Position numbers and translations under genes: made by a program
Notes under the pieces: model-generated
Told to the model about the DNA's origin: nothing
The model's input: only the letters and a program-made list of their open reading frames with translations
Databases searched by the model: none
From: an uncultured Eubacteriales bacterium
GTDB lineage: Bacteria > Bacillota > Clostridia > Oscillospirales > Acutalibacteraceae
Direction of reading: 5' to 3'
DNA: 64,000 nucleotides
Assembly: GCA_934729465.1 (NCBI GenBank)
Contig: CAKVEP010000007.1
Span: 9,380-73,379, forward strand
In this document: positions 1,275 to 46,418 of the stretch, in pieces
Layout: each line of letters begins with the position of its first letter
Numbering within the stretch: the stretch's first letter is position 1

Positions 1275-1969
1275 AAGTAATACCGAGCCAAATAGCGGTA
1301 CCGTTCGTAAAAAAACACCATTACAGCGGGAAAGTTGTCACTAACAGTAATCTTCACTTTGGAGCATTTTTAGACGGAAAACTTCACGGAGTAATGAGCT
1401 TTGGCTCGTCAACGGATAAGTCTAAACTAATAACACTTGTTGAAGATACAAAATGGAATGAATTTATGGAATTAAACCGCATGGCTTTTGATGATTATCT
1501 ACCAAGAAACAGCGAAAGCAGGTGCATATCACAAGCGATAAAATTAATAAAGCGAAACGCTCCCAATATTAAATGGATAATAAGTTTTGCGGACGGTTGC
1601 AGCTGCGGGGACGGAACTATTTACAGAGCAAGTAATTTTGTGCTTACGGGAATAAGGAAAAATGGGGGTATTTGCCAGCTCCCAAGCGGTGAGAAGATAC
1701 ACAAATTGACCTTACACACAGTACCCAATAAAAAGCGTGCGGAACTCGGAGGAAAAAGTTTTTATGAAGTGACGGGCGGAGTGTACAGTTTCAAAAAATA
1801 TCTTGAATATTCAGGAGCAAAGCTACTTGACGGATATCAATTAAGATATATCTATTTTATAGACAAGTCATACAAAGATAAACTAACTGTACCGATACTG
1901 CCATTTAGTGAAATAGACAAGTTAAACGCGAGAATGTACAAGGGGAAAAAATTAGATGTGCGAGTATAG
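1247..1969 (+). CDS. Hypothetical phage protein (TTG start; possible DNA-modification enzyme, unassigned)
   Basis: 240-aa ORF between the ParB genes and terS. No recognisable methyltransferase or HNH motifs. Confidence 0.35.
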   Translation: MGRAKEIKLKVIPSQIAVPFVKKHHYSGKVVTNSNLHFGAFLDGKLHGVMSFGSSTDKSKLITLVEDTKWNEFMELNRMAFDDYLPRNSESRCISQAIKLIKRNAPNIKWIISFADGCSCGDGTIYRASNFVLTGIRKNGGICQLPSGEKIHKLTLHTVPNKKRAELGGKSFYEVTGGVYSFKKYLEYSGAKLLDGYQLRYIYFIDKSYKDKLTVPILPFSEIDKLNARMYKGKKLDVRV

Positions 1970-2120
1970 TTTAAAGAGTAAAACGGCACGCTTCCAGCGT
2001 ACAAAAAGAGGTGCAATTCCTACTTGCTCGCTCCAGCGGGGAATCCTCGCCGATAATTTGCGAATACAGAAATAATAAATAAGAAATATTGCGCCCGTGC
2101 TTATAGAAAGGAGGAACGAG

Positions 2121-4808: not shown

Positions 4809-4881
4809 TGTAAATATGTATTGATTTTGTGTAAATAATGTGATACAATATGAATATACTAATACTGAGGAGGTAATTAAA

Positions 4882-5151
4882 ATGGCAAAAACAGAAACCT
4901 TACACATGAGAATTGACGCAGATTTAAAGAGTAATGCAGAGTATCTTTTAAACCAATTGGGGATGTCTACAACCGAAGCTGTTAGTATATTTTTAAGACA
5001 GGTTATTTTAAACAGAGGACTTCCCTTTGATGTAAAACTGCCAAAGTATAACGAAGAAACCGAAGAGGCTATGAGAGAAGCAAGAAAAATCAGTAAAAAT
5101 GGAAAAGGGTTTAATGATATAGATTCTCTTTTTGAGGAGCTTGACAAATAA
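4882..5151 (+). CDS. dinJ: DinJ/RelB-family antitoxin
   Basis: The MAKTETLHMRIDADLK RHH N-terminus is typical of DinJ. GGAGG RBS. Overlaps the toxin gene start (TAATG). Confidence 0.75.
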   Translation: MAKTETLHMRIDADLKSNAEYLLNQLGMSTTEAVSIFLRQVILNRGLPFDVKLPKYNEETEEAMREARKISKNGKGFNDIDSLFEELDK

Positions 5152-5423
5152 TGCTGGAAATTAAATTTACGTCTAAATTTAAAAAAGACTATAAATTAAT
5201 AAAAAAGCGTGGTATGAATATTAATCTTTTAAAAGAAATAGTCAATAAATTAGCAAATAATATTCCTTTGGAGGAAAAGTACAAAGACCACGAACTAATG
5301 GGGAATTACAAAGGATTTAGAGAGTGTCACATACAACCCGATTGGTTACTTATTTATCTTATTGAAGATAATAAATTAACATTAACTCTTTCCAGAACAG
5401 GGACGCATTCAGATTTATTTTAA
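5151..5423 (+). CDS. yafQ: YafQ/RelE-family mRNA interferase toxin
   Basis: 90 aa with the YafQ-like motifs DYKLIKKRG and HELMGNYKGFRECHIQPDWLLIY. Translationally coupled to the antitoxin. Confidence 0.75.
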   Translation: MLEIKFTSKFKKDYKLIKKRGMNINLLKEIVNKLANNIPLEEKYKDHELMGNYKGFRECHIQPDWLLIYLIEDNKLTLTLSRTGTHSDLF

Positions 5424-5487: not shown

Positions 5488-6684
5488 GTGAATATATTTA
5501 AGAGAAAGCGAGCAGAACCAACAGTATCTCCGCCCGTAGATGATGTTTTATTAAAATCTTTGCTTTACGGAGAAGAAATAGACCGAGAAAAAGCACTAAA
5601 TGTCCCAGCAGTAGCAAAGTGTGTAAATTTAATATCCGAAACCGTCAGCATGATACCGATTAAGCTATATAAAGAGGAAATGGTAGACGGAAAGTCAAAA
5701 ACAATCGAAGTTGCAGGCGATAACCGCCCCGACTTGTTAAATGATGACACAAAGGACACATTAAACGGCGTACAGTTTAAGCGGGTGATAGTCAGAGATT
5801 ATTTGCTTTTCGGGAAAGCGTACGCGTATATAAATAAAAAGAGAAACAACGTGCAATCACTACACTATATAGAAGCACAGAAAGTGCAGGTAAATAAAAA
5901 TTTTGACCCAATATTTAAAGATTATGACTTAATCGTACATGGGCAAACGTACAAACCTTTTGAATTTATAAAAATTACACGAGCAAGCACAGACGGAATA
6001 AACGGAGCAGGAATAATCAAGGAAAATCAAGAATTATTAAAAATAGCGTATCAGACGTTAAAATTTGAACAGAATTTAGTCACAACGGGCGGTAATAAGC
6101 GAGGATTTGTAAAGTCAAAAAACACGCTCACAAAAGAAGCAATTAAAGCTCTAAAAGACGCATGGCACAAGATGTATTCAGACCCAAGCGAAAATAACGT
6201 GGTAATATTAAATAACGGTTTAGAATTTCAGGAAGCAAGCAGTACATCAGTTGAAATGCAGCTAAACGAAAGCAAAATAGCGACAAACAACTCAATCCTA
6301 GATATTTTAGGGGTGCCGCAAGATTTTAATTATGAAACATTTATAAAAACAGCAGTAATGCCCGTAATAACGGCGATAGAATGCGCATTAAACAAAGACT
6401 TACTTCTCGAAAAAGAGAAAAAGTCTTTTTATTTTGCGTTCGATACGAAAGAAATTACAAAAGGCGATATTAAGACACGTTTTGAAGCATATAAGACCGC
6501 ACTTGACGCAAATATTATGCAGATAGATGAAATTCGCTATATGGAGGATTTAGAGCCGTTAGGATTAAATTTCATAAAACTTGGTTTACAAGATGTTTTA
6601 TTTAATCCCGAGACAAAGGAAGTCTACACGCCAAACACAGGACAGACCGCGACAATTAAAGAAAATATAGGAGGCGACGGATAA
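5488..6684 (+). CDS. Phage portal protein (HK97 family)
   Basis: 398 aa downstream of terminase. Portal-like sequence with a GTG start after a GGAGTG RBS. Confidence 0.8.
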   Translation: MNIFKRKRAEPTVSPPVDDVLLKSLLYGEEIDREKALNVPAVAKCVNLISETVSMIPIKLYKEEMVDGKSKTIEVAGDNRPDLLNDDTKDTLNGVQFKRVIVRDYLLFGKAYAYINKKRNNVQSLHYIEAQKVQVNKNFDPIFKDYDLIVHGQTYKPFEFIKITRASTDGINGAGIIKENQELLKIAYQTLKFEQNLVTTGGNKRGFVKSKNTLTKEAIKALKDAWHKMYSDPSENNVVILNNGLEFQEASSTSVEMQLNESKIATNNSILDILGVPQDFNYETFIKTAVMPVITAIECALNKDLLLEKEKKSFYFAFDTKEITKGDIKTRFEAYKTALDANIMQIDEIRYMEDLEPLGLNFIKLGLQDVLFNPETKEVYTPNTGQTATIKENIGGDG

Positions 6685-10830: not shown

Positions 10831-11088
10831 GTGGGCGGTAAAAATACAAATTTATGTTTAGAGAATGAGTGCGAAATGGGTCAAGCGTCATGTTTGGATT
10901 TTTCATGGCTTTTATTTGTAGGAGTGAAAATGCTCGGTTTTACGGAAAAAGCAGTCGGGCGTATGACACTAAAAAAATGGAATTTGTTATTTGAACATTT
11001 TAAAAAATATCACAATTTTAAGACTAAAGGCGGGCTTTTCAAAGAGGAAAAGGAAGTAATCCAAGATGACGAGTGGATTAAAGGTTAG
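10831..11088 (+). CDS. Tail assembly chaperone T segment (expressed as a G-T fusion through the -1 frameshift)
   Basis: The ORF is in the -1 frame relative to G and starts just after the slippery site. This is the conserved G/GT arrangement of siphoviruses. Confidence 0.5.
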   Translation: MGGKNTNLCLENECEMGQASCLDFSWLLFVGVKMLGFTEKAVGRMTLKKWNLLFEHFKKYHNFKTKGGLFKEEKEVIQDDEWIKG

Positions 11089-11124
11089 TTGTGGTTAAAA
11101 CCATTGTGTGCAGCATATAATATA

Positions 11125-11153
11125 TTGACGTACGCAAAAACGTATGTTATAAT
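11125..11153 (+). promoter_or_regulatory. Consensus sigma-A promoter (TTGACG-17-TATAAT) driving the yefM-yoeB moron
   Basis: Exact -35 and -10 hexamers with a 17-nt spacer. The spacer contains a partial palindrome (acgtacg..acgtatgt) that could be the YefM operator. Confidence 0.6.
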
Positions 11154-11171
11154 ATAAACGGGGTGATTTAT

Positions 11172-11420
11172 ATGTATAACACTAATGTAACTAATGCAAG
11201 GGCGAATTTATATAATTTAATAAATATGGCTATTGACAATAACGAAGTAATTAATATTAATACAAAAAACGGAAATGCAGTACTCATTAGCGAAGAAGAT
11301 TATAATTCTTTAATAGAGACACTTTATCTGTCATCAGACCCAGAGTATAAAAAGTCTTTAATTAATGGAAAAAATACTCCCTTAGAAGACTGTGTAGATG
11401 AGGAAGAGGTTGAATGGTAG
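11172..11420 (+). CDS. yefM: Phd/YefM-family antitoxin
   Basis: 82 aa with YefM fold signatures (NARANLYNLI, EEDYNSLIETLYL). ATGGTAG overlap with the toxin gene. Confidence 0.75.
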   Translation: MYNTNVTNARANLYNLINMAIDNNEVININTKNGNAVLISEEDYNSLIETLYLSSDPEYKKSLINGKNTPLEDCVDEEEVEW

Positions 11421-11680
11421 GATTCAAAGTAAAGTTTACAAAACAAGCGGTAAAAGATTTAGAATACTTAAAAGCCGCAAATCTCTCTAAAAAAGCAAAA
11501 AAATTAGTTGATATAATGAAAGAAAACCCGTATCAAAATCCCCCTCCTTATGAGAAGTTAATTGGTGATTTAGACGGTATGTATTCAAGGAGAATAAATA
11601 TTCAACATAGATTGGTTTATGAGGTTGATAACGAAGAAAAGATTATAAAAATTATTAGAATGTGGAAACATTATGAATAA
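11414..11680 (+). CDS. yoeB: YoeB/Txe-family toxin
   Basis: 88 aa with YoeB motifs (KFTKQAVKDLEYL and YSRRINIQHRLVYEV), ending ...WKHYE. Confidence 0.75.
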   Translation: MVGFKVKFTKQAVKDLEYLKAANLSKKAKKLVDIMKENPYQNPPPYEKLIGDLDGMYSRRINIQHRLVYEVDNEEKIIKIIRMWKHYE

Positions 11681-11737
11681 TTAGAAAAAGCGCTCAGGAG
11701 TGGGCGTTTTTTTGTTGTGCAAAAAGGCGGTGAAAAC

Positions 11738-13657
11738 GTGGGAGTAACAACATTTGGAGGAAAAATAAAGTTAGAGGGCGAGCGTGAATATAGGCAGGCG
11801 ATCTCGCAGATAAATTCAGATTTAAAAGTGTTTTCTTCAGAGATTGGAAAGTTAACGGCGGAGTTTGGCAAAAATGATACGTCTACAAAGGGTTTAACGG
11901 AGCGGAACAAGGTTTTAACCGAACAAATTGAAAAACAAAAAGAAAAAATAGCGACTTTAAAAGGTGCGGTCGAGGATTCGGCGGAGCAGTATGGCGAACA
12001 TGACAAAAAGACAAATAACTGGAAAACGACTTTAAACAAAGCCGAAGCAGAGCTAACCAAAATGGAAAAAGAACTGGACGGCAATAACAAACAGCTTGGC
12101 GAAAACGGAGAAAATTTAGATGACGGGAGTAAATCTCTTGATGAATTTTCTAAAAGTGAGGACGAAGCAGGACAAAAAGCCCTTAAGTTCGGAGACTTGG
12201 TTAAGGCAAATTTAGTAAGCGAAGTGATAATAAGCGGGATAAAGAAGCTTGGCGAGGGTATAACGAAAGTCAAAGAATATTTGACGGATTCGGTAACAGC
12301 GGCAGCAAGCTATGCGGACAATATTTTAACTATGTCTACACAAACAGGTATCAGTACGCAGACTTTACAAGAATACGGTGCAGTAGCGGAACTTGTAGAC
12401 GTAAGTGTTGATACCATGACAGGTTCAATGGCGAAAAATATAAAATCCATGACGAGTGCTGCAAGCGGAACGGGAACGGCGGCGGAAGCATATAAAAAGC
12501 TGGGCGTATCCGTTACGGATTCGAGCGGAAATTTAAAAGATAGCGAACAAGTTTATTGGGATACAATAGACGCTTTAGGGAAAATTCCAAATGAAACTGA
12601 GCGCGACAGCATAGCTATGCAAATTTTAGGTAAATCCGCACAAGATTTAAACCCATTAATAGCGCAAGGAAGTGCAGGAGTAGAAGAACTTACATCAAAA
12701 TATGCCAGATTTGGAACGGTTCTATCAGAAGAAGCCCTCAACTCTTTAGGGGCACTTGATGATAGTATGCAAATTTGGAAAATCACGACAGAAGCAACGG
12801 GAAATTTACTCGGAACACTTCTAGCTCCTGCAATGACAGATATCATAACTAATGCTAACGATATGTCAGGCGAATTAAATTCTTTAATAGATTCAGCTTT
12901 CAACGGAGGGGATATGGAAGCAGCGGTGATGAACTTTGCTGATACAGTTAGAGAAGCTGTAACGAATATATCTGGGGCTATCCCCCAGATAATCGAAGTT
13001 GGGAAGAATCTTATTTCAGTGCTTTTAGAGGGTTTAACCGCTGCTCTACCTTATATTTTAGAAGCCGCGGGACAAATAATTCCTGAAATAATCACGGGGA
13101 TAACATCAGTTTTACCACAGCTAACAAACGCAGCAATTACTATAATTATGGCGCTTTCCACCGCACTAATTAATTCTTTGCCACAAATTATTCAAGCGGG
13201 AGTAGAAGTCATCACAACACTTGTCAGCGGAATATCACAGTCTTTACCTATTTTAATTCCTGCAATCGTGTCCGCCATGATATTAATTGCGCAGTCTTTA
13301 ATTGACAACATAGACTTAATAATACAAGCAGGAATTGATTTGTTTATGGGACTGGTACAATCAATCCCGCAGATTATAGCCGTTTTAGTACCGAAAATTC
13401 CAGAGATAGTAAACAGTATAGTAAATGCTTTAGTAAATAATGTTCCTTTACTTTTAGACGGAGCAATAACACTTTTCATGGCGATAGTATCGGCAATCCC
13501 CGAGATTATCGTTATTTTAGTACAAAACGTGCCTCAGATTGTAACGGCGATAATTAATGGGCTTTCAAAACTTCCAGAACTAATCGGAGGAATTTTAGGA
13601 ACAGTTTTAAATAGATTCACCGAGTGGGGCGTATTCAAGCACGATAAAAAAATATGA
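11738..13657 (+). CDS. Tail tape measure protein (start GTG 11738 with RBS; the track uses 11717)
   Basis: Long helical protein with the usual TMP features: coiled-coil N-terminal part, then Gly/Ala/Ile-rich hydrophobic repeats. It sits after G/GT. Confidence 0.7.
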   Translation: MGVTTFGGKIKLEGEREYRQAISQINSDLKVFSSEIGKLTAEFGKNDTSTKGLTERNKVLTEQIEKQKEKIATLKGAVEDSAEQYGEHDKKTNNWKTTLNKAEAELTKMEKELDGNNKQLGENGENLDDGSKSLDEFSKSEDEAGQKALKFGDLVKANLVSEVIISGIKKLGEGITKVKEYLTDSVTAAASYADNILTMSTQTGISTQTLQEYGAVAELVDVSVDTMTGSMAKNIKSMTSAASGTGTAAEAYKKLGVSVTDSSGNLKDSEQVYWDTIDALGKIPNETERDSIAMQILGKSAQDLNPLIAQGSAGVEELTSKYARFGTVLSEEALNSLGALDDSMQIWKITTEATGNLLGTLLAPAMTDIITNANDMSGELNSLIDSAFNGGDMEAAVMNFADTVREAVTNISGAIPQIIEVGKNLISVLLEGLTAALPYILEAAGQIIPEIITGITSVLPQLTNAAITIIMALSTALINSLPQIIQAGVEVITTLVSGISQSLPILIPAIVSAMILIAQSLIDNIDLIIQAGIDLFMGLVQSIPQIIAVLVPKIPEIVNSIVNALVNNVPLLLDGAITLFMAIVSAIPEIIVILVQNVPQIVTAIINGLSKLPELIGGILGTVLNRFTEWGVFKHDKKI

Positions 13658-15551: not shown

Positions 15552-15696
15552 AAAGAGAGTAGGCGTGTTGTCAGACACTTATTCACCTACTCCGTATACA
15601 CCCACAGCCCAAAAGAGCTAGAGTATAAATATTATATCATGTGCTTAATGAACTTTCAAGTTGGCTGGGGGAAATAATTTGAAAGGAATTTAATTT

Positions 15697-16086
15697 ATGA
15701 GCAAAGATTTTAACAAAAAGACGGAAATTGAAGAGCTGGCATGCAAGATATTGGAAAGCATTATAAATACATTTAGCTAGCCTACATATTTATCACAGAG
15801 ACACAAAGAAAATTCAGAATATTATGACGAATTTGAAAAAGAGTTTGAGAAAGGACTAAGTTATGAGCAAAAAAAAGATTTAGATTCACTAATATCAATA
15901 AAAAATGCAGTAGAATCAACACAATTTGACTATACATTGCTTTTGGGAATGCAAATAAAATCTGCCATAGAAGAAATAATAAAAAATCCTCTTAAAATCT
16001 TAAATTTATACGACAACGAGGGAATCCCTGTTAGAGATATTTATAAATCTATTAAGCAAAGAAGTGAGGGTGTCAATAATGGGTAA
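15697..16086 (+). pseudogene. 129-codon ORF interrupted by an in-frame TAG at 15778-15780 (27 aa, amber, then 101 aa); hypothetical
   Basis: The reading frame is continuous apart from the single amber codon. Its 3' end overlaps the ATG of the next gene (ATGGGTAA), which suggests an operon. Confidence 0.3.
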
Positions 16087-16366
16087 TTTCAAGGAAAATA
16101 TAAATTTATTTTTAACAGAATCAATGAATAACTGTTTTATAAAATTAAAACAAATTGATAAAAATTATCAAGATATAAACGCTGCGAGAATAAAAGCCTC
16201 TCAAAAATTTGAGGACTTTTTAGATACGTTAAATTCAAAAGACAGACAATTTTTAGAGAACTACAAAAGCGAGGGATATTTAGCGGACAGCATAGAAAAA
16301 GAATGGCTTTATTTACAAGGTTACAAGGACTGTATAAAGTTATTAAAAATGATTGAAGAAATTTAA
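16079..16366 (+). CDS. Hypothetical protein (95 aa), coupled to the upstream interrupted ORF
   Basis: GTGAGGGTG RBS before the ATG at 16079, followed by an intrinsic terminator. Confidence 0.4.
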   Translation: MGNFKENINLFLTESMNNCFIKLKQIDKNYQDINAARIKASQKFEDFLDTLNSKDRQFLENYKSEGYLADSIEKEWLYLQGYKDCIKLLKMIEEI

Positions 16367-16407
16367 AAGGCGAAATAGATAAAAAAATTAAATAAAATTC
16401 TACATGA

Positions 16408-16440
16408 GGAGTGAGCTAAAATCACTCCCTTTTCTTTATT
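16408..16440 (+). terminator. Rho-independent terminator (ggagtga-gctaaaa-tcactcc then T-rich)
   Basis: Perfect 7-bp stem followed by cttttctttatttt. Confidence 0.6.
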
Positions 16441-16880
16441 TTGTTTGCTAATTTACCACCTATTTTACTTTATTCACCAATATTTGTTTATAAATTCATC
16501 CCCAAAATCCGTCTATAAGGGTGAGAGGAAATTTATTCTAATCAATGTACTTTGAAAATTGAATACATACATTCTCAGCCACGTTGTCCGCTGTGTTTCA
16601 AGTGAAACAAGCGTTTTATACGGTGCGCCAAGACCTAAATGATATATTAAAATTTACACTTCTATTATATACAAATTTAGCGAGCGATATTCCACCAATA
16701 TATAAAATCGTCTGTGGTGGGCGATTCTCAACAACAGCAGCGGTGATAATGATACTCCTACATAGTCGAGGTTAAGTCCCAGAGTGTAGCCCAAGGAAGG
16801 GACGTGCAATTCGTGTGTTGATACCTAACCAGTATCAGGTTGAGGATGTCAAAAAAATTTATTTATAAGGAGTTTTTATA

Positions 16881-17603
16881 TTGAATTTGGACTATGAACA
16901 CGTTATCAATAAAAAAATAAATGGATGTGACATATCAATTTATTTTTCAAAAGAGCACAATCCAAAAATTAAAGAGAAAGATAGATATATAAGGAAAGAC
17001 GGAAGTGAGTATAAAATAGATGAATTAAAATATACTTGCTACCATAAGACAAGGAAATTAAGCGATTGTGACGGACAGACTTCATACAGAGCCGAGAAAA
17101 TAGACAACGCAGTTTTAGCGGTACTTGAAGATTTATTTAAGAAAATAAAAGAAATACCGCAATCAAAAGCACTTGAAAGACGGTATAAATTGCAAGTATC
17201 GGGATGTAATGAGAGATATAAAAAAGCGAATGCCGAAGTAGAAAAGTTAGGCAATCAACTAAGAACATTAAAACTTGAAATCGGTAAGGCTCTAGTAGGG
17301 GAAAGCACATTTACAGCGGAACAACTAAGCGAAGCAATCAAAGTTACGCAAAATAAATTAAGTGAAGCAAACTTAGAAATGGAAAAAGTAAAATCACAGT
17401 TAGATAACAAAAAAGAAGCTATGGGGAAACTAGGTTACCATTATGAAAGTTTTTTAAGTTGGGCAAATGAATTTGAAAATTCACCGCTCGAGCAAAGAAA
17501 AATGATAGCGTGTCAGCTTATAAGACAAGTTTTAGTTAGCGCAGGATATAACATAAAGATTGAGTTTGATATGAACTACCAGCAGTTTTGCGAGGGATTA
17601 TAA
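16881..17603 (+). pseudogene. Large serine recombinase C-terminal fragment (zinc-ribbon/coiled-coil plus DUF4368-like tail); catalytic resolvase domain absent
   Basis: The 240 aa resemble the C-terminal half of SpoIVCA/TnpX-type recombinases (coiled-coil ...LRTLKLEIGKAL..., ending ...QLIRQVLVSAGYNIKIEFDM). A stop lies 12 nt upstream in frame. No Ser-recombinase catalytic domain is found upstream. Confidence 0.45.
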
Positions 17604-17656
17604 CAATCATAAAATTGAAAGCTACAACAAGTGTTTTTTACGGTATGAAACTATAA

Positions 17657-17720
17657 CGCTCGGTAGAGCATGCGGCTGTTAACCGCAGGGTCGTTGGTTC
17701 GAGTCCAACTTGGGGAGCCA
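17657..17720 (+). tRNA. Partial tRNA-Asn (anticodon GUU) 3' fragment; lacks the 5' acceptor strand and has a shortened D-arm (probable att-site remnant)
   Basis: Anticodon stem-loop tgcgg-ctGTTaa-ccgca, T-arm gttgg-ttcgagt-ccaac, and acceptor 3' strand ttgggga-g-CCA are all present. No complementary 5' strand (tccccaa-like) occurs within 80 nt upstream. Confidence 0.5.
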
Positions 17721-17783
17721 AAGAAGAGTTCGGTATTTATAGATGCCTAACTTTAATGTTTATACAATCTGGAGGAATTTATA

Positions 17784-18035
17784 ATGTCTGAATTTAAATA
17801 CGATACGCAACTTTTGATTGAAGGAAAAAATTTAAGTGAAGAAAAAATAAATGATTATTTTGTAAATAAATTTCAAGGAGATTGTCTTTTGGTGGTCAGT
17901 GATGATGATTTGGTTAAGATTCATTTTCATACAAATGAGCCATGGAAAGTACTAGAATATTGTGCAAGTATTGGAGAAATTTATGATATTATAATTGAGG
18001 ACATGGACAGGCAAGAAAGAGGATTAAAAGGATAA
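17784..18035 (+). CDS. Small protein resembling the C-terminal segment of DAK2/FakA-family proteins (possible gene fragment)
   Basis: ...GDCLLVVSDDDLVKIHFHTNEPWKVLEYCASIGEIYDIIIEDMDRQE resembles the conserved C-terminal end of fatty-acid kinase FakA. It has its own GGAGG RBS. Confidence 0.3.
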   Translation: MSEFKYDTQLLIEGKNLSEEKINDYFVNKFQGDCLLVVSDDDLVKIHFHTNEPWKVLEYCASIGEIYDIIIEDMDRQERGLKG

Positions 18036-18126
18036 AAATTTTGTGTAAATAAATATTTTATAATTAAAGATAAATAAAAAATAGGTTTATCCACAATTTT
18101 ATGGGTAAACCTGTTTTATTTAAATA

Positions 18127-19524
18127 TTATTTCCAAAACATAGTATCGTATATTCCGTTAGCAGGAGCGTTAAAAATGGGGTCTTTGTTTTGAGATTTTT
18201 GTTTTGAATAATCATTCAAAGCAAGCGTGGAACGCTTGGTAAGAAGAAGAATTGCTATGATATTAACAATGGCCATGAGTCCCATACAAATATCAGCGAA
18301 ATTCCAAACTACTTCAGCGCTCGCCATTGCGCCTAAAATAACAGGGATTATGCACATTGCCCTAAATATATTTAAAACATAGTGATTATCTTTAATAAAC
18401 AACAAATTGGATTCAGCATAGCAATAGTTACCAATTATTGAGCTAAATGCGAAAGCAAATATTGAAAAAGTCATAAAGTGAATCCCTATAGTTCCTATTT
18501 GACCGTTAAGAGCCTCTTGAACTAAAGGTATGCCATCGGCGTGACCGTCTATAGCAACACCGGACAACATTATTATAAAAGCTGTTGTGGTGCATATTAA
18601 AAACGTGTCTATAAACACAGATAAAACTTGAACAATTCCCTGTTTGACCGGGTGAGAAACATCAGCGGTTGCGGCGGCGTTAGGAGCACTTCCCATGCCA
18701 GCTTCATTTGAGAACAAACCTCTTTTTATTCCGATAAGTACGGCACTTCCGGCGAATCCGCCGAAGATAGATTTGAAATCAAAAGCTTTGCTAAAGATGA
18801 CGGAGAACATTGAGGGGAGCTTGTCTATATTTCTCAAAGTAATAAAGACGCCCAAAGATAAATAAATAATAGCCATTATTGGTACAATTATTGAAGAAAT
18901 AAATCCAATTCTGTGAACTCCACCAAAAATGATGAATGCGGTGAAAATACCAAGTACTATCCCAACGACTAACGGCCAAATGGAATGTTCGTATCCGGGA
19001 ATATAATATTGGAACGAAGACGAAATATTATACGCTTGAAGGGCGTTGAATCCAATTGCGAAACAAGATATTAGTAACACCGAAAATAAAATACCTATGC
19101 TTCTTTTGCCAAGAGCCATTTGTATATAATATGACGGTCCACCTCTAAAAGAATTTTCATCTTTATCATTAACTTTGTATATTTGAGCCAGTGTGCTTTC
19201 AACGAAAGCCGAAGCAGATCCAAGAAAAGCCATTATCCACATCCAAAATATAGCTCCGGGACCTCCTGCAACTAAAGCGGTTGTGATGCCCGCTATGTTT
19301 CCGGTTCCAACCTTAGAAGCTGTTGAAATCATAAGTGCTTGGAAAGATGACACTCGATTTCCAGAAGACTTTTCAGTCATAAGTTTTATGGACTCGGGAA
19401 GGAATCGCAACTGAACAAATTTAGTACGGAAGGTAAAATAGAGTCCGCACAAAACCAAAAGTGCAATGAGTATGTTACTGTACAAAAAATTATTAATGTT
19501 TGACAACATTGTTTCTAACTGCAA
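18127..19524 (-). CDS. agcS: Alanine/glycine:cation symporter (AGCS family)
   Basis: 465 aa. Multi-TM protein with AGCS-family architecture. Confidence 0.8.
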   Translation of the reverse strand: MQLETMLSNINNFLYSNILIALLVLCGLYFTFRTKFVQLRFLPESIKLMTEKSSGNRVSSFQALMISTASKVGTGNIAGITTALVAGGPGAIFWMWIMAFLGSASAFVESTLAQIYKVNDKDENSFRGGPSYYIQMALGKRSIGILFSVLLISCFAIGFNALQAYNISSSFQYYIPGYEHSIWPLVVGIVLGIFTAFIIFGGVHRIGFISSIIVPIMAIIYLSLGVFITLRNIDKLPSMFSVIFSKAFDFKSIFGGFAGSAVLIGIKRGLFSNEAGMGSAPNAAATADVSHPVKQGIVQVLSVFIDTFLICTTTAFIIMLSGVAIDGHADGIPLVQEALNGQIGTIGIHFMTFSIFAFAFSSIIGNYCYAESNLLFIKDNHYVLNIFRAMCIIPVILGAMASAEVVWNFADICMGLMAIVNIIAILLLTKRSTLALNDYSKQKSQNKDPIFNAPANGIYDTMFWK

Positions 19525-26253: not shown

Positions 26254-26378
26254 GAAATAAAAATAAATTTGAAATTCTATGATTAAAATTCATAAAATTA
26301 GCTCAAAATAATTTTGTTAAGAAAAATCAAAAGTTGGTATTTAAATTGCGTAAGCAAAATATACTGGAGAGTGAAATT

Positions 26379-26753
26379 ATGAATATCAAAAGAGGAGATA
26401 TATATTATGCAGACTTAAGCCCTGTTGTAGGCTCTGAGCAGGGAGGAATAAGACCTGTACTTATAGTTCAAAATGACGTTGGAAATAAATTTAGTCCAAC
26501 AGTGATAGCGGCGGCAATAACAAGCCAGCACTCAAAGGCGAGTCTTCCAACTCACATACAAATCAATGCTAAAGAGAGCGGTCTATCAAAAGATTCTGTG
26601 GTGTTGCTTGAGCAGATAAGAACGATAGATAAAAGAAGACTAAAAGAAAAAACCGGTGAAGTAAACAATGTGGAAATGAAGCAGGTAAATTATGCGTTGT
26701 CGGTGAGTTTCGGATTGGGACAACGAGAAGATTTGGCTGTTAGAGCTACATAA
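26379..26753 (+). CDS. ndoA: EndoA/MazF-family mRNA interferase toxin
   Basis: Near-collinear match to B. subtilis EndoA ([31 protein letters not shown]...). No antitoxin ORF lies in the 166-nt gap upstream. Confidence 0.8.
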
Positions 26754-27125: not shown

Positions 27126-28112
27126 ATGAGGATGGGGGCGAAAAAATTGTTTAAAGATAAAAAAGCTAAATCTCAAAACAAAACTAAGCGTCCGTTTATA
27201 AAGAATGTAAAAAGGAACCTCGGCTCAGACATTTACATAGAAAATCCTCAAGATGAAGAAACTCGAAGATGGGCAGTTGACACCGACGATTATCACGATA
27301 AAGAAACAATGGCTCTTGAAAATAAAAAACGCTTTTTTCAAAAGGACGTGAAAATGGAAGAGGTTCTACCCAACAATGAGAAAAAAGATGAGATTATACC
27401 AAAGAAATTTGGCTACTTTGAAACCAAAGAAGGTACGGTTTTAGTTGGATACGATAAATACAACAAAAGAAAAGCGCCCATGGGCTTTACGTTGCTTAGC
27501 GATGATAGTACAGAAGAAAATAAAATTCCTGAAAACGAGCCGTATGATATGAACACATACTTCGGCAAAAATTATCAAGGCAATGAGAAGTATTTTGAAA
27601 CGAATTCATCAAGTTTCGTTTATGACCCTAAAAATGAAATCATACAAAAACTTATGGATGACGATAACAACAGTGAAAATGATGATGAAGAATTATTGTA
27701 TCAAACATCTAAAGAGGAGCTAAACGAGGATGAATTGAAAGATGAAAAAGACGATTTACCAAAAAATCAAAGAAAAGTTATAGATAAAAAGATTAATCTA
27801 ACAAAGCAGATAATAAAAGAAAAAGAAGATAAAAATAAAAGTTTTTTACACGAGATTGAGGAATTTATAAAGCATTTCGAAAACGATAAATTAAACACAA
27901 TTATAGATTCCGAAGACGCAGTCACAAGAAGAAAAAGGATTACGGAAATGTCAGTATGGATAATAGAGTATGAGAGAATTAAGAACATACTGAAGAAAAT
28001 GGACGTAAAGAATTTAAACGAGCAAGAAATATATAGTTTAATAAAAGATAAAGTTAACAGAATTTCAAAAGCAGATATAAAAAGAATTATTGATGAGCTT
28101 AAAAATCAGTAA
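27126..28112 (+). CDS. Hypothetical acidic, Lys/Glu/Asp-rich protein (328 aa) immediately upstream of the tail cluster
   Basis: Long ORF with biased composition. No recognisable domain. Start uncertain. Confidence 0.35.
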   Translation: MRMGAKKLFKDKKAKSQNKTKRPFIKNVKRNLGSDIYIENPQDEETRRWAVDTDDYHDKETMALENKKRFFQKDVKMEEVLPNNEKKDEIIPKKFGYFETKEGTVLVGYDKYNKRKAPMGFTLLSDDSTEENKIPENEPYDMNTYFGKNYQGNEKYFETNSSSFVYDPKNEIIQKLMDDDNNSENDDEELLYQTSKEELNEDELKDEKDDLPKNQRKVIDKKINLTKQIIKEKEDKNKSFLHEIEEFIKHFENDKLNTIIDSEDAVTRRKRITEMSVWIIEYERIKNILKKMDVKNLNEQEIYSLIKDKVNRISKADIKRIIDELKNQ

Positions 28113-28256
28113 AAAAACACATCTAAATACGGTTAGCAATAAATTGGGGCTCATTTCCCTTTTTTATATGTTACATAAATTTTATACATCTAAGCTAATT
28201 TTTTAAGCGAAAGGAGAGAAAGGTTCTTACTTAAAAAGTAGAGAACCGAAAGAATT

Positions 28257-29978
28257 ATGGCAGAATATTTATCACCAGGAGTGTACCTAGAAGAATTTGA
28301 CAGTGGACCAGTTCCTATGGCAGGAGTTGGAACAAGTACAGTAGGATTTGTTGGAGTTGCAGAAAAAGGTCCGGTTATAGGAAGTCCTGTATTAGTAACA
28401 AGTCCATCTGATTTCACAAAGAAGTTTGGAGGATATTTGTCGGCAAGTGAATTCGGAGAATACAGATACTTAGCTTATGCGGTAAACCATTTCTTCATAA
28501 ACGGAGGCTCAAGAGCTTTTGTTATGAGAGTTGCGCCATCAGACGCAGTAACAGCAGCAAGTAAATGTGTTGAAGGAAAAGAAGGCATTATCGACATTAA
28601 AGCTAAGAACCCGGGTGCATGGGGAAACTCAGTAGTTGTAACATTCGCACCTGCAAGTGAGAGTAAATCTCAGGTTCTTGAAGACCTTGGAGAAGGCAAA
28701 TATCGTTTGAAAAATGCTGTGGGATTTAACCCTGGCGATGTTGTATCAACAGACGGTTTAGACAAGCCTGAATACAATGTTGTAAAAGCAGCTAAGGGCA
28801 ACAAGGTTACATTCGAAAAGCCATTTAAGGCGAAGATTGTGGACACAAACGTAGTGCCAAAAATTAAAATAAAAACCTGTGAACTTAAAGTCAAGGTAGA
28901 AAATGACGATGTTTCTGAAGTATATGAATTAGCAACATTAAATGTAAATGTTCCAGAATTTATAGAAAAAGTAATGGCAAAATCAGAGATAGTAGATTTA
29001 ACTGCTAAGCCGTTAACAGAAGCAAAGAATCCGATGGATTTAGTAAGAGAAGTTTTTGGCGGAAAAGACGAAGAAATAGTTGTTCCATTGGTAGGAGGAA
29101 CTAACGGAGCTGCAGCAAGCTTAACAGACGCTGACTTCATCGGTAAGGATGGCGGACCTGGCGAACGTACAGGTATTCAAGCTTTCTTAGACAATTCTGT
29201 TGTAAGTTTGATGGCAGTACCGGGAATAGTTAGCCCGAATGTTGAGTTAGCACTTGTAAATCATTGTGAGAAGCTAGGCAGTAGGTTTGCAGTGTTAGAC
29301 ATGCCTCAGAACTTAAAAACACCGACCGACTTATTACAACACAGAGATATAGTAGACAGTGATTACTGTGCAATGTATCATCCGTGGTTAAAGGTATTTG
29401 ACCCGCTAGACAAGAGAGACATATATATTCCGCCTTCAGGTTCAATACTTGGAATATATGCAAGAAGCGACAATGCAAGAGGAGTTCACAAAGCACCAGC
29501 AAATGAAGTTGTTGCAAATTGTACGGGACTTTCTGTAAACTACAACGTTGGTGAGCAAGATATGCTTAATCCAAAAGGAGTAAACTTAATAAGAAGGTTC
29601 CCTGGAGCAGGAATAAGAGTATGGGGTGCCAGAACGGCAACATCAAGACCTCTATGGAAATACATAAACGTAAGACGTTTGTTTATCTACTTAGAAGAGT
29701 CAATAAAGGCAAACACAAATTGGGTAGTGTTTGAGCCAAACGACCCGGCTCTTTGGGCTAGAGTACAAAGAACGATTGAAATATTCCTTGAAGGAGTATG
29801 GAAATCAGGAGCTCTTGCCGGAGGCGGACCTGGCGATTCATTCTTTGTTGACATTGGAACTAATACTATGTCGCAGGATGATATAAACAATGGTAGATTA
29901 GTATGTGTAATAGGTGTGGCGCCTGTTAAACCGGCAGAGTTTGTAATATTCCGTGTTACTCAGAAAACCGGTGAATAA
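28257..29978 (+). CDS. Contractile tail sheath protein
   Basis: The MAEYLSPGVYLEEFD... N-terminus and C-terminal sheath-domain motifs are present. 573 aa, with an inserted domain. Confidence 0.85.
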   Translation: MAEYLSPGVYLEEFDSGPVPMAGVGTSTVGFVGVAEKGPVIGSPVLVTSPSDFTKKFGGYLSASEFGEYRYLAYAVNHFFINGGSRAFVMRVAPSDAVTAASKCVEGKEGIIDIKAKNPGAWGNSVVVTFAPASESKSQVLEDLGEGKYRLKNAVGFNPGDVVSTDGLDKPEYNVVKAAKGNKVTFEKPFKAKIVDTNVVPKIKIKTCELKVKVENDDVSEVYELATLNVNVPEFIEKVMAKSEIVDLTAKPLTEAKNPMDLVREVFGGKDEEIVVPLVGGTNGAAASLTDADFIGKDGGPGERTGIQAFLDNSVVSLMAVPGIVSPNVELALVNHCEKLGSRFAVLDMPQNLKTPTDLLQHRDIVDSDYCAMYHPWLKVFDPLDKRDIYIPPSGSILGIYARSDNARGVHKAPANEVVANCTGLSVNYNVGEQDMLNPKGVNLIRRFPGAGIRVWGARTATSRPLWKYINVRRLFIYLEESIKANTNWVVFEPNDPALWARVQRTIEIFLEGVWKSGALAGGGPGDSFFVDIGTNTMSQDDINNGRLVCVIGVAPVKPAEFVIFRVTQKTGE

Positions 29979-30009
29979 TCAATAAGGTATATGAAAGGAG
30001 AGATTTATT

Positions 30010-30531
30010 ATGGCGTATAGCCCATTGCCAAATGCAACTGGCGTATTTGACTCAGAGGCTTTAACAGATTTTAAAATGCCTCTTCGTGGACACAGATTTT
30101 TAGCATTATTTGATGGAACAGATGTTATAACTTCATCATGGAAAACGATTACCGGAGGTCTTGAACAAATATCTCAAGACCCATTAGAGTATCGTGAAGG
30201 TGGGTTTACCTATCCGTGGAGCATGTTCTTCCCGAATGGTAAAACAAATCAGGGAAATACTGAGTTGGAATTTGAAAAAGGTATGTTCCTAGGCAACACC
30301 ACTATACCTGACTTCGTTAAAAGCTATTTTGACGGAACAAACACAAGTTACATTCAAACTGTTACCATAGACATATATGATGCTTATGGAAAAGAAGTAG
30401 TGGCAGAATATGTTTGTCATAAATGTTTCCCGACTGGCTATGACAACGGCGGAAGCATTGATGCAACAAGTGCAGACCAATGGATGGAAAAATTAAAAAT
30501 GAAATGCGAATGGATAGAGCGTAAAAAGTAA
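30010..30531 (+). CDS. Tail tube protein (gp19/Hcp-like fold)
   Basis: 173 aa. ...SSWKTITGGLEQISQDPLEYREGG... is the tube-family signature. Lies directly after the sheath gene. Confidence 0.7.
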   Translation: MAYSPLPNATGVFDSEALTDFKMPLRGHRFLALFDGTDVITSSWKTITGGLEQISQDPLEYREGGFTYPWSMFFPNGKTNQGNTELEFEKGMFLGNTTIPDFVKSYFDGTNTSYIQTVTIDIYDAYGKEVVAEYVCHKCFPTGYDNGGSIDATSADQWMEKLKMKCEWIERKK

Positions 30532-30622
30532 AATAGTTTATATTGTTATATCATCCCTGTTTTGTGGGATGATATAACATGTAATATAAAAATAAAATGT
30601 AGGAAAGTAGTGTGATGTTGGA

Positions 30623-30994
30623 ATGTCAGCTTTTGAAACAGAAATAGAATTTGTATTACCTAAGGGATATGTTGATGAGAAAGGTGAAGTTCATAAAAAG
30701 GGGAAAATGCGTTTAGCTAATGCAGCCGACGAAATTATACCTTTGAATGACAGAAGAGTAAAAATGAATCCTGGATACCTTAGCATTCTCTTGTTAGAGA
30801 GAGTAATAACACAACTTGGTACGTTAGAGAAAGTGGATGCTCAAGTAATCGAGAGTTTATTTACGGCAGACATGGCATATTTACAAGACTTATATCAAAA
30901 ATTCAATGCCGTTGAACCTCAGCTTATGGATGTGACATGCCCTAAGTGTAATCACAAATTTAGGATGGACGTCCCTTTTTTCGGGGAAGCCTAA
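30623..30994 (+). CDS. Tail assembly chaperone (gpE/G-like) with C-terminal zinc-ribbon CPKC..H..; source of a -1 frameshift product
   Basis: Position between the tube and tape-measure genes. Ends with T_TTT_TTC eleven nt before the stop. Confidence 0.55.
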   Translation: MSAFETEIEFVLPKGYVDEKGEVHKKGKMRLANAADEIIPLNDRRVKMNPGYLSILLLERVITQLGTLEKVDAQVIESLFTADMAYLQDLYQKFNAVEPQLMDVTCPKCNHKFRMDVPFFGEA

Positions 30995-31191
30995 AAAGTT
31001 ATCCACAAAAAGCTCTTTATGAAGAGATAGCTTTTTTGGCTTATTATTTACATTGGTCTCATGATGAGATTAGAAACCTTAGTCATAAGGAAAGAGCAAA
31101 ATACTGTAAGGAAGTTTCGAAAATAAACAAGAAAATGAATGCAAACGGGGAAGAAAATAAAAATATTTTTGACCTCGACAACTTTGATTAA
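30976..31191 (+). promoter_or_regulatory. -1 PRF slippery heptamer T_TTT_TTC (30976-30982) plus a ~70-codon -1 frame extension to the TAA at 31189-31191 (E' segment)
   Basis: The heptamer is in the correct codon register. The -1 frame is open for 70 codons with no start codon of its own until near its end. Confidence 0.5.
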
Positions 31192-31214
31192 ACAAAAAGG
31201 AAGGAGGATTATAT

Positions 31215-32333
31215 ATGGCTGAAGAGAATAATAAACAAGGTCAGCAATTGGGCATAACTAACTGGGCAGCGAATGCACTTGCGGGGATAACAGGAAAGTC
31301 GATTTTGAAAGATAAGTATGGTAGACCCAGAATGCCGGTTCCACAAATATCGTCTGAGGAATCGCTTCGCTCTGGTGGCGCTGCTAGGTTTAGATTTATA
31401 TTAACGCTAAACAATTTTACCTATGGATTTAAAAATATAACGGGTATGAAAGTGTCTAGGAACCTCAATCCAATTTTACAAGGTGGGGTAAATGACCAAT
31501 CAATTTTTGTTGGTATGCCGGATGCTGCTGATACAGAATTAACGCTTACAAGAGGCTTTCTAATAAGGGAGTGGCCCATTGCTACGACCGCTGCATTGAT
31601 GGCAGCCTCGCAAATACCGAATAATTTATTGAGAAGAACAGCGCTTATGGCGGTTGGATTGACAGACGCTCAATATACTTTAGAGCATGGACCTGCATTT
31701 GGAGATATAAAAGTATATAATCCTCGTACTTTTGAATTGTCAGACTGGTGGACATTCATATCTTATGGAATAATAGATAGAAGTCCTGATGGTTTGGACG
31801 CATCTAGCGGAGAACCTGCTATGGAGAGTATTACCCTTAAGGTGACTGATTTAAAACAAAGGTCTGTAAAGAGAATGCCGACAAATTATAATAGCGTAGT
31901 GAAAATGTTTCAGCTAGATGATTATGAAAACGAGTTCAAGCCTTTAGGAGGGGAGACTCAAAATAAAGGCAGCCACTACACCGGCGAAGAGGAAGGAACC
32001 GGAGGAGCTTTAGGCTTGAAAGATAATACGGGTAGTAATTACACCGGCGAAGAGGAAGAAACCGGAGGAGCTTTAGGCTTGAAAGATAGCACAGGTAGTA
32101 ATTATATAAAAAAGGATAAAGCTAATGTGGAAAGAGAAGCCAAAAAAGAAGCTTTGAAAAAGTCTATGGATAAGAAAAATCTTGGAAGTAGTTATACCAG
32201 TGAAGAGGAACGTAAAGAAAATTTGAAATTAGAAGAAGCTAAAAAGAGAGCTGCTGAAGAAAAGAAAGCTGAGCAAGCTCAAAAACAAAAGGAACAAGAT
32301 GCAATGGATAAATTTATAAGCGAGAATATTTAG
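31215..32333 (+). CDS. Second tube-like protein (tube-initiator/Afp5-gp54-like N-terminal domain) with a long disordered Lys/Glu-rich C-terminal extension
   Basis: ...FRFILTLNNFTYGFKNITGMKVSRNL..QGGVNDQSIFVGMP..ELTLTRGF is the tube-fold signature. Residues ~250-372 are low complexity with tandem repeats. Confidence 0.5.
   Translation: MAEENNKQGQQLGITNWAANALAGITGKSILKDKYGRPRMPVPQISSEESLRSGGAARFRFILTLNNFTYGFKNITGMKVSRNLNPILQGGVNDQSIFVGMPDAADTELTLTRGFLIREWPIATTAALMAASQIPNNLLRRTALMAVGLTDAQYTLEHGPAFGDIKVYNPRTFELSDWWTFISYGIIDRSPDGLDASSGEPAMESITLKVTDLKQRSVKRMPTNYNSVVKMFQLDDYENEFKPLGGETQNKGSHYTGEEEGTGGALGLKDNTGSNYTGEEEETGGALGLKDSTGSNYIKKDKANVEREAKKEALKKSMDKKNLGSSYTSEEERKENLKLEEAKKRAAEEKKAEQAQKQKEQDAMDKFISENI
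31977..32102 (+). repeat. Tandem 63-nt repeat x2 inside the tube-like gene (encodes YTGEEE(G/E)TGGALGLKD(N/S)TGSN)
   Basis: Two near-identical 63-nt units seen directly. Confidence 0.7.
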
Positions 32334-32417
32334 ACATTAATTATAATTTAACTTAATATTTATGTTTAAATGTTATAATAGAGAAAGGGAAATATAGTTG
32401 GGAGTGAGTGTGATAAT

Positions 32418-35387: not shown

Positions 35388-35405
35388 AAACAAATGTTTT
35401 AAAAG

Positions 35406-36632: not shown

Positions 36633-36635
36633 GGA

Positions 36636-37403: not shown

Positions 37404-37422
37404 GTTAAGGAGGAGTGAGTTT

Positions 37423-37809
37423 ATGGCAACGATAAAAGGATGGAAGTTCCCAATTCAGGTTGATAAGGACACAGGGAAAATACAAATGATAGAAGATAAC
37501 GAAAATGTGAAGCAAGATGTTAGGATAATACTTGGAACAGAGCAATACGAACGAAAAATATATGCTAATTTCGGAACAAATACCAGGTCGTTTATGTTTG
37601 AAACGGTTGACCCTGTATTTATGACAAACCTTAAAAGAACGATTGAAGATTCCTTAAAAATTTGGGAAAAACATATATCCGAACTTGATGTTGAAGTAAA
37701 TGCTCCTCCGGGGCCAATATCAAAGGTAGAGGTGAACATAGATTACACAACCGATATTATACCTGTTCAGGAAAGATATACTCATGAGATAAACACAAGC
37801 GGAGATTAA
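37423..37809 (+). CDS. Baseplate wedge protein (gp25 / GPW lysozyme-like family)
   Basis: 128 aa. ...VKQDVRIILGTEQYERKIYANFGT... is the GPW/gp25 core. Confidence 0.75.
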   Translation: MATIKGWKFPIQVDKDTGKIQMIEDNENVKQDVRIILGTEQYERKIYANFGTNTRSFMFETVDPVFMTNLKRTIEDSLKIWEKHISELDVEVNAPPGPISKVEVNIDYTTDIIPVQERYTHEINTSGD

Positions 37810-37841
37810 GTTTAAGAAAAATATTATAAGAAAGGAAGATA

Positions 37842-40862: not shown

Positions 40863-40883
40863 GTATGCAGAGGGTGAGAAGAA

Positions 40884-43043: not shown

Positions 43044-43054
43044 GGGGTGACGTT

Positions 43055-44209: not shown

Positions 44210-44241
44210 AATAAAAAAATAGCGTTAAAGGAGGACTTGCG

Positions 44242-44550: not shown

Positions 44551-44586
44551 ATAGAGATATAAAATATTTGAGAGGGGTATAATGAT

Positions 44587-46377: not shown

Positions 46378-46418
46378 TATTATTAAAGTATAAATTAAAA
46401 GCGAATAATTGAAAAAAC

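Follow-up and report, generated by a model that had tools for sequence, protein, structure and literature searches.

The segment 16441–17720 of the stretch of DNA analysed here, 64,000 nucleotides from an uncultured Eubacteriales bacterium (the window), is very probably the right end, on the attR side, of a defective siphovirus-type prophage of ~27 kb that occupies a tRNA-Asn gene closing an rRNA operon. Within it, a truncated large serine recombinase (LSR) gene is followed by the 3' part of a tRNA-Asn, and all DNA to the right of 17720 is host DNA, including the gene of an 83-aa protein. An earlier note on this DNA had placed here the right boundary of a prophage or of stacked integration and deletion events. 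The boundary is borne out by unoccupied alleles, by an attL on the same contig and by the adjacent integrase remnant, and its later reshaping by two deletions that can be read in the window lineage against the related contigs L006 and L007 (contigs used for comparison are designated by L and a number). The region as a whole is ordinary biology, a typical end of a grounded prophage, and its novelty modest, lying in a clade of LSR phages that apparently breaks tRNA-Asn and brings its own copy.

The truncated tRNA-Asn gene and its unoccupied alleles

The feature on which the boundary turns is the following.

17658..17720, + strand: 5'-truncated tRNA-Asn(GTT), B' side of attR, with a D-stem remnant, the anticodon arm, the T arm and CCA (partial Rfam match and alignment to the intact gene)

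The Rfam tRNA model matched this piece in part (17658–17709, model positions 10–63 of 71, 36 bits), and in all 64 kb of the window ARAGORN called no tRNA. Up to 17720, nothing is missing from the anticodon GTT, the T arm or CCA. The earlier description of a tRNA-Asn(GUU) copy with intact anticodon arm, T-arm and CCA and no 5' acceptor strand is thus accurate, and no complete canonical tRNA is present at this position. When the piece was aligned to the intact tRNA-Asn of prophage-free strains, its first ~17–22 nt proved to be replaced by phage DNA. Devoid of the 5' acceptor strand and of a full D arm, the piece is predicted to fail as a functional tRNA-Asn gene.

Same-species contigs were found by exact-protein look-up of the symporter and 83-aa ORF proteins of the window (99.5–99.6% identity), and the junctions of 26 contigs and the window were tabulated. 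In the prophage-free contigs (L227, L230, L231, L234 and L259–L264), the match to the window starts only at 17660 or later. In six prophage-free contigs, L227, L230 and L259–L261 among them, tRNA-Asn is intact and continues into the same right flank, which provides the comparison with an unoccupied site that the earlier note had called for; five more (L231, L234 and L262–L264) start inside tRNA-Asn and show the same junction alleles. The tRNA-Asn(GTT) of L227 lies just after 16S, tRNA-Ala, tRNA-Ile and 23S, and that of L230 also adjoins 23S/16S rRNA. A search of GTDB genomes for an unoccupied site, with the symporter as anchor, returned only relatives at 68–70%, with no synteny.

The other end of the prophage was reached by extending the window's own contig leftwards (L245). 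An intact tRNA-Asn is located there at 201–276, ~9.0 kb to the left of window position 1, and is followed by a terminator and then by Sak, RusA, HTH_36, DnaB, pRha, ParB, Mom and TerL; L246 and L247 agree with this left end. The tRNA segment repeated at both prophage ends measures 58 nt. With an unoccupied allele, a matching attL on the same molecule and an adjacent integrase remnant, the piece at 17658–17720 has every property looked for in an attR, and its earlier interpretation as an attR-type scar holds, given the unoccupied alleles in the same species and the intact tRNA-Asn at the other end.

In L227 (11881–12157), a 5S rRNA between 23S and tRNA-Asn was not detected at the gathering threshold, and 23S seems to run straight into the scarred tRNA region. 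Elsewhere in the window, a weak full-length Rfam tRNA match at 1960–2028 (+ strand; 30.4 bits against a gathering score of 29), which ARAGORN did not call, lies between a Mom-like gene and the next prophage ORF.

Remnant of a large serine recombinase and its leader

To the left of the tRNA piece, the window holds what is left of an integration module.

16471..16496, + strand: deletion scar 1, 26 nt (L006 alignments)
16549..16861, + strand: conserved, possibly structured 5' leader of the operon of a small ORF, termed X, and the LSR (full-length match to an nhmmer profile of three diverged copies)
16746..16818, + strand: pemK RNA motif, Rfam RF02913, in the 3' third of the leader (Rfam covariance search)
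16881..16976, + strand: first 32 codons of a fusion ORF, derived from X (BLASTP and tblastn against ORF X of L007)
16977..17603, + strand: C-terminal 208 codons of the LSR, with the second half of the zinc ribbon, the coiled coil and the C-terminal tail (alignment to the L007 LSR)

The fusion ORF, 16881–17603, starts with TTG and encodes 240 aa. Its Shine-Dalgarno sequence, AAGGAG, is at 16867–16872, and an in-frame TAA at 16866–16868 precedes the start by 12 nt, in agreement with the earlier coordinates. The intact counterpart is found in the viral contig L007, in the order sigma-like ORF, pemK RNA motif, small ORF X and 531-aa LSR; the domains of this enzyme are Resolvase (residues 16–166), Recombinase (residues 197–286) and Zn_ribbon_recom. 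Amino acids 33–240 of the fusion align without gaps to residues 324–531 of the L007 LSR (70% identity), and amino acids 3–32 match amino acids 29–58 of the L007 ORF X (60% identity, E 5e-12, BLASTP); by tblastn, X amino acids 4–33 map to window 16887–16976. Among homologues, recombinase homology begins at codon 33 (nt 16977), and the DNA match sets in at 16977/16978 against L001, L004 and L006 and at 16993 against L007. It ends at ~17725 unless a contig end or a further rearrangement intervenes (L003 ends at 17707, L002 at 17683). The join between X and the LSR falls on an AAGAT microhomology at 16975–16979, and the alignments indicate that a deletion of roughly 1.1 kb at this AAGAT fused X codon 32 in frame to LSR codon 324.

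The domain content of the 240-aa ORF agrees with this truncation. The sole Pfam recombinase signal was a zinc-ribbon match (PF13408, positions 24–57 of 58, 20 bits against a cutoff of 25.3), from which the first Cys pair (CAHCGG in relatives) is missing. A PHROG integrase profile was matched at positions 399–562 of 651, and the coiled-coil-type matches were weak. Pfam searches of the ORF gave no match to DUF4368, to the Resolvase catalytic domain with its serine nucleophile (PF00239) or to the Recombinase domain (PF07508). The earlier assignment to the zinc-ribbon/coiled-coil/DUF4368-like C-terminal half of an LSR was therefore right about the C-terminal LSR part; the zinc ribbon, though, is present by half only, DUF4368 is not found, and codons 1–32 come from gene X. 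Nor did the N-terminal recombinase remnants that the earlier note had envisaged upstream materialize: tblastn detected none in 16441–16976 or elsewhere in the 64-kb window, and no other segments of the LSR or X in the whole window. As judged from its sequence, the ORF clearly derives from a large serine recombinase and would not be an active member, the catalytic and recombinase domains being absent and the zinc ribbon halved. Without a catalytic serine domain and a recombinase domain, the product should be unable to recombine DNA, which would leave the prophage stuck.

Related contigs carry truncations of their own. In L006, whose shared parts are 99% identical, the leader passes from its start directly into the LSR at ~codon 113; the L003 LSR lacks residues 49–179, and that of L004 retains 352 aa. 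Because these truncations differ and are independent, the 240-aa ORF is a decayed gene and not a short family; the possibility of a short non-recombinase family, raised earlier, is also at odds with L007, which has the full 531-aa gene in the same place as the window fragment. A recurrent breakpoint or intervening element in the zinc ribbon, considered because several database proteins begin near MRKDG, was dismissed on the grounds that the deletion end-points differ among L003, L006 (~codon 113) and the window (codon 324).

One might nevertheless ask whether the fusion, with its promoter, leader and ribosome-binding site retained, is itself a functional protein, whose coiled coil could bind related integrases or directionality factors and so hinder the integration or excision of incoming related phages. 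The join is in frame, the Shine-Dalgarno sequence and the leader with its pemK motif are intact, and the C-terminal region aligns gap-free to the full-length enzyme; moreover, the exact 240-aa protein is present on 28 contigs, and the LSR-derived part, 16977–17603, is identical in the four lysogen contigs compared. These lysogen contigs are, however, near-clonal, so identity among them is silent on selection, and the low dN/dS of the C-terminal region against L001 (0.07 at dS 0.37) reflects its past as a full-length gene. Relatives show other truncations in place of the X::LSR architecture, and half of the zinc ribbon is missing. We consider a functional fusion quite improbable, and treat the ORF as a decayed recombinase gene.

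The leader is 68–70% identical to L006 8253–8581 (minus strand) and homologous to L007 570–853, and L004 retains part of it. The L006 copy precedes an HTH_17 (Xis-like) gene beside the tyrosine integrase of a second prophage in that contig. In the window, the pemK motif scored 39.4 bits (gathering score 34.8, E 3.9e-5) in an E-value-mode scan with laxer filters and was absent from the whole-window gathering scan; in L007 it scored 49.6 bits at 718–817, ahead of X and the full LSR. Apart from it, Rfam revealed no group I or II intron or other known RNA in 16441–16880. An RNAalifold consensus fold of the leader contains a closing long-range stem, with 21 pairs showing compensatory change, from three sequences, which are too few to rely on. 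A cis-regulatory role in the 5' UTR would agree with the position of the motif, which precedes an ORF equipped with a Shine-Dalgarno sequence; that the ~310-nt leader is a larger structured RNA, of which the Rfam motif is one domain, is a weaker possibility. To our knowledge, the pemK RNA motif has no established function. It is described in Rfam as preceding a recombination-related kind of gene. The occurrences here and in L007, both above the gathering threshold and in the 5' leader of recombination-related genes, conform to RF02913, from which the window differs in that the 61-position motif makes up only the 3' third of a ~310-nt leader and no pemK toxin gene follows. A pemK motif placed directly in the leader of an integrase operon offers a concrete system for probing the function of the motif, which the main text of the 2017 discovery paper does not mention.

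A further deletion is recorded at scar 1. The 26-nt stretch 16471–16496 occurs twice in L006, where the copies bound an 812-nt segment with a sigma-factor-like ORF: window 15587–16496 corresponds to L006 3548–4457, and window 16471–16565 to L006 5270–5364. A sigma-like ORF is also found upstream of the leader in L007, and tblastn gave no match to it in the window. A deletion at 16471–16496 would have removed the sigma-like ORF from the window lineage, and the original integration module would have resembled that of L007, with the sigma-like ORF, the ~310-nt leader with its pemK motif, ORF X, the 531-aa LSR and the attachment site.

The truncated LSR is the sole integrase of the element. Among the called genes of the ~27-kb element, no tyrosine integrase and no lysin, holin or baseplate families were found. 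In its truncated integrase, the lack of recognisable lysis and baseplate genes, the retention of toxin–antitoxin pairs and the independent deletions in relatives, the element is a typical example of a grounded (defective) prophage, with nothing unusual to set it apart.

Additional observations concern the prophage and its relatives. Its two toxin–antitoxin pairs, RelB/YafQ and Phd/YoeB (the latter just before the tape measure gene), lie at window ~4840–5423 and ~10900–11700 and may aid persistence. In L006 (6675–12500), what comes after the tRNA piece is not host DNA but a second prophage in inverted orientation; a tyrosine integrase of that prophage, broken into three ORFs, abuts the tRNA piece, its HTH_17 Xis-like gene has the same pemK-type leader, and it carries a holin and a GH25 lysin. 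In L258 (425–5679), a diversity-generating retroelement (bAvd, reverse transcriptase and a YDG/MBG target protein) is situated directly upstream of the sigma-like/X/LSR module, in the phage with the intact recombinase.

Reconstructed attP and the origin of the left-end tRNA

The interval between the LSR stop codon and the tRNA piece, together with the right flank, contains the features that bear on the mode of integration.

17636..17664, + strand: P arm of the recombinase attachment site (conserved beside the LSR stop codon in L001, L004 and L006; diverged in L007)
17636–17647, + strand: outer 12-nt inverted repeat TTTTACGGTATG, within the P arm
17665..17666, + strand: putative crossover dinucleotide AG, in the shared core (T)AGAGC of the tRNA D stem (dyad centre of the rebuilt attP)
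17710..17894, no strand: lysogen-specific haplotype (SNP listing and junction table)

Upstream of the intact tRNA-Asn, lysogens and prophage-free strains alike contain one or two units of 114 nt. Each unit consists of a 5' tRNA fragment ending GGTAGAGC, fused to GAATGGCATAGTAACATACCGTAAAAG... (the P' arm), plus 89 nt, and GAATGGCATAGTAACATACCGTAAAAG... is an imperfect mirror of the window DNA between the LSR stop codon and the tRNA piece (TTTTACGGTATGAAACTATAACGCTCGGTAGAGC). Joining the P arm and the P' arm yields a 60-bp attP, GTGTTTTTTACGGTATGAAACTATAACGCTCGGT-AG-AGCGAATGGCATAGTAACATACCGTAAAAGAAAA, with perfect 12-bp terminal inverted repeats. Its dyad about AG 17665–17666 comprises 24 mirrored matches out of 34, compared to a mean of 8.9 and a maximum of 22 at random window centres (20,000 trials). 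Over its outer 17 nt the mirrored arm is identical to the L004 P arm, and over its inner 12 it differs, which fits a true second half-site and not a recent inversion. In every lineage, tRNA identity has its left limit at TAGAGC, which is also the right limit of the 5' tRNA fragments. The L007 piece carries another tRNA-Asn sequence, in which the anticodon stem pairs properly; a distinct, internally consistent sequence of this kind is expected for a target-derived B' arm.

We infer from the dyad centre that the crossover may take place at AG 17665–17666 in the D stem; the piece at 17658–17720 would then be the 3' part of a tRNA cut by the recombinase. Serine integrases normally have common cores of 5–8 bp and disrupt their target (PMC8092301). 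An adjacent attachment site with a short core and inverted-repeat arms is present here (the P arm in the window, the P' arm from same-species contigs), and the short common core, the palindromic attP and the disrupted target appear to fit a serine integrase. L253, a relative with 62% identity, has no tRNA piece after the gene, suggesting that the tRNA-Asn target is limited to a narrow clade.

On the inner side of the P' arm, 89 nt away from it, lies the left-end tRNA-Asn. The gene is closely preceded by a TATAAT box and closely followed by a terminator, and runs on into the early genes. It appears, then, on the phage side of the crossover, and is probably a replacement copy borne by the phage and not simply a host gene that was restored. 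In the L007 lineage, six contigs show the LSR, the P arm, the tRNA 3' piece, a terminator and the same early genes, the order that integration into the own tRNA of a resident prophage, or a reaction in cis, would yield. These arrangements suggest a mechanism in which the phage would break the host tRNA-Asn and supply its own copy. With the phage-borne tRNA as the sole target remaining there, later phages of this type would enter the resident prophage, and each round of integration and loss would leave behind one 114-nt unit (5' tRNA fragment and P' arm); such re-integration cycles would also leave internal junctions of LSR–P/B' with early genes. More generally, it is conceivable, at a likelihood we put slightly below even, that a narrow LSR clade (~69% identity or more to the window fragment) breaks tRNA-Asn in the D stem by way of a palindromic attP and carries a complete tRNA-Asn, possibly with its own promoter (TATAAT) and with a terminator after it, 89 nt inside attL.

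Several observations weigh against this interpretation. Self-deletion should be a hazard for a phage in which a perfect copy of the target lies 89 nt from the attP. In L004 the order is tRNA, element, LSR–P arm–fragment, yet there is no 5'-fragment/P' unit upstream of the tRNA. IMG/VR, searched with three exact patterns for attP/attL, yielded no phage genome, free or circular, that contains the rebuilt attP (P, core, P'). Finally, attL and the prophage-free sites read CAAC-AC-GGGGAGCCA, whereas attR, joined to the same host flank, reads CAAC-TT-GGGGAGCCA in the window; CAAC-TT-GGGGAGCCA is also the reading in 12 further loci that hold lysogen-type contigs and in L006. On its own, AC versus TT would point to an exchange within the final 9 nt of the tRNA.

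This last difference is also an argument for an exchange in the outermost 3' nucleotides of the tRNA, within GGGGAGCCA (17712–17720), by a tyrosine-type integrase or by homologous recombination, the piece at 17658–17711 then being phage-borne. Such an exchange would likewise account for the contiguity of LSR, P arm and tRNA 3' piece with phage early genes in the L007 lineage, and the LSR-adjacent pieces of L001, L002 and L003 are decayed or chimeric, as non-functional phage-borne DNA would be. Against this, the TT falls in a haplotype at 17710–17894 that reaches into the 83-aa ORF. Within these 185 nt, 10 positions set the lysogens apart from every prophage-free strain (the acceptor-strand TT/AC pair is among the differences), compared to ~4 per kb farther to the right, and the non-lysogen alleles are common to two independent sets of prophage-free strains. 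On the reading that TT belongs to this prophage-linked haplotype, it would not locate the site-specific crossover, and a crossover in GGGGAGCCA based on TT/AC was set aside for that reason. The haplotype most likely arose when the prophage and a short flank were moved between strains by homologous recombination that ended inside the 83-aa ORF. A tyrosine integrase, moreover, is missing from the element, and the 5' tRNA fragments ending GGTAGAGC, with the mirrored P' arm, point to past D-stem crossovers at the locus. A P/B' site, finally, is of the attR type and would be inert for canonical serine-integrase integration. An exchange at the 3' end accordingly appears unlikely to us, and a crossover in the D stem is the reading that we retain.

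Compared to known elements, the locus resembles serine-integrase prophages (Bxb1, phiC31, A118 and SPbeta) in that the integrase gene adjoins the attachment site, the full-length relative in L007 has the Resolvase, Recombinase and zinc-ribbon/coiled-coil architecture, the common core is short (6–8 bp here) with an attP of inverted-repeat arms, and the target gene is physically disrupted, as in Int-S systems (PMC8092301). It differs in that its target, cut in the D stem, is a gene for a tRNA and not for a protein, in that a whole replacement tRNA-Asn seems to be carried by the element just inside attL, and in that the window LSR, having lost residues 1–323 and being fused to the upstream small ORF, does not count as an active member. 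Tyrosine-integrase prophages and islands in tRNA genes share with it the intact tRNA at one end and the 3' fragment at the other, a repeat such as the 58-nt one and a hot spot with stacked scars. Unlike these, the window element has no tyrosine integrase, its fragment begins in the D stem and not in the anticodon loop, T loop or 3' end, and its tRNA was apparently replaced by a complete phage-borne gene 89 nt inside the mirrored P' arm and not restored by a phage 3' segment. If confirmed, a tRNA gene as attB would add a new, highly conserved type of natural target to the serine-integrase repertoire for genome engineering. The locus also offers a well-resolved case of stacked scars building up at a tRNA hot spot.

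The 114-nt units were located at L246 124–344, L245 94–200, L227 ~11881–12110 (minus strand) and L259 ~5570–5830; their copy number varies among strains, which suggests repeated integration and loss at tRNA-Asn. An older scar, CACCATTAGCTCAG..., occurs right after 23S rRNA.

The 83-aa gene and the neighbouring features

To the right of the tRNA piece begins the host flank, with a short gene that the earlier note had counted as part of the scar.

17784..18035, + strand: stand-alone gene of an 83-aa FakA-like middle-domain protein, host, intact (own ATG; Shine-Dalgarno GGAGG at 17771–17775)

The 83-aa protein covers positions 1–78 of the 80 of Pfam PF21645 (E 2.5e-20), and in the NCBIfam models it corresponds to positions 222–298 of 530 of YloV and 253–312 of 549 of FakA. 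As these are middle positions, the protein does not represent the C-terminal end of DAK2/FakA proteins, which the earlier note had thought to be its only resemblance, but the whole middle domain. Like FakA/YloV, the DAK2-domain fatty acid kinase, it matches the FakA-like middle domain over the full length; it differs in having neither the Dak2 kinase domain nor the C-terminal FakB-binding domain, and in being a single-domain protein that also occurs in phage tail modules.

The idea that the ORF is the leftover C-terminal fragment of a larger DAK2/FakA gene destroyed by integration has in its favour that it lies only 63 nt from the tRNA piece and matches only a part of the FakA/YloV proteins. 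It has its own ATG and Shine-Dalgarno sequence, however, and covers a whole domain model; the same gene adjoins the intact tRNA-Asn in prophage-free strains; and 83-aa copies are found inside phage genomes too. A relative of the protein is encoded by 554 metagenome stretches (tblastn-confirmed), many of them on long chromosomal contigs, and the best 80 of the 554 are nearly full length, with 71–82% amino acid identity. An origin as debris of a destroyed FakA gene is, on this evidence, hardly credible. The comparisons identify the protein as a separate stand-alone family that is not FakA, and its gene, intact in prophage-free strains and belonging to a widespread, conserved family, has no part in the scar, to which it had first been assigned.

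Six relative loci were inspected: their neighbours are not the same, and in four of them the gene call is 83 aa long. A scan of 43 larger loci found no tRNA-Asn near the relatives of the gene, which indicates that the 83-aa gene is not tied to the tRNA; its relatives were for this reason abandoned as a guide to the empty site in other genomes.

Phage genomes also contain FakA-middle-domain genes, with 80% DNA identity to the window gene, at L005 6014–6265 (Faecalimonas phage NatCom_26447) and L008 892–1156. In NatCom_26447 the 83-aa gene lies between tail genes and the tape measure gene. The phage copies resemble the window gene from a point shortly before the ATG as far as the stop codon, which gives the gene the look of a discrete cassette.

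For annotation, these results change the 240-aa ORF to a recombinase pseudogene (deletion fusion), the tRNA piece to attR, the 83-aa gene to a real host gene and the prophage to defective. The remaining features around the boundary are as follows.

Upstream of 16441: prophage genes for terminase, portal, capsid, tape measure, a Gp10_C tail-fibre protein and a ribbon-helix-helix regulator (family searches)
16064–16366: DUF6809/phrog_28204 phage gene, directly preceding a terminator-like hairpin (gene-family matches)
16408..16428, + strand: terminator-like hairpin closing the DUF6809/phrog_28204 gene (consensus scan)
18071..18124, both strands matched as spurious microRNA precursors: long AT-rich hairpin between the convergent 83-aa ORF and symporter genes
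18127–19524, minus strand: Na/alanine symporter gene, host (family assignment)
Further downstream, other strand: the host genes yajC and tgt

The hairpin at 18071..18124 is probably the shared terminator of the 83-aa gene and the symporter gene. Farther to the right, a PemK-family toxin gene (26334–26753) lies downstream of dapB/dapA/asd, and the interval that follows it, 27126–47000, contains a phage-sheath gene and a long run of large ORFs, which may form a second phage-derived, possibly tailocin-like cluster.

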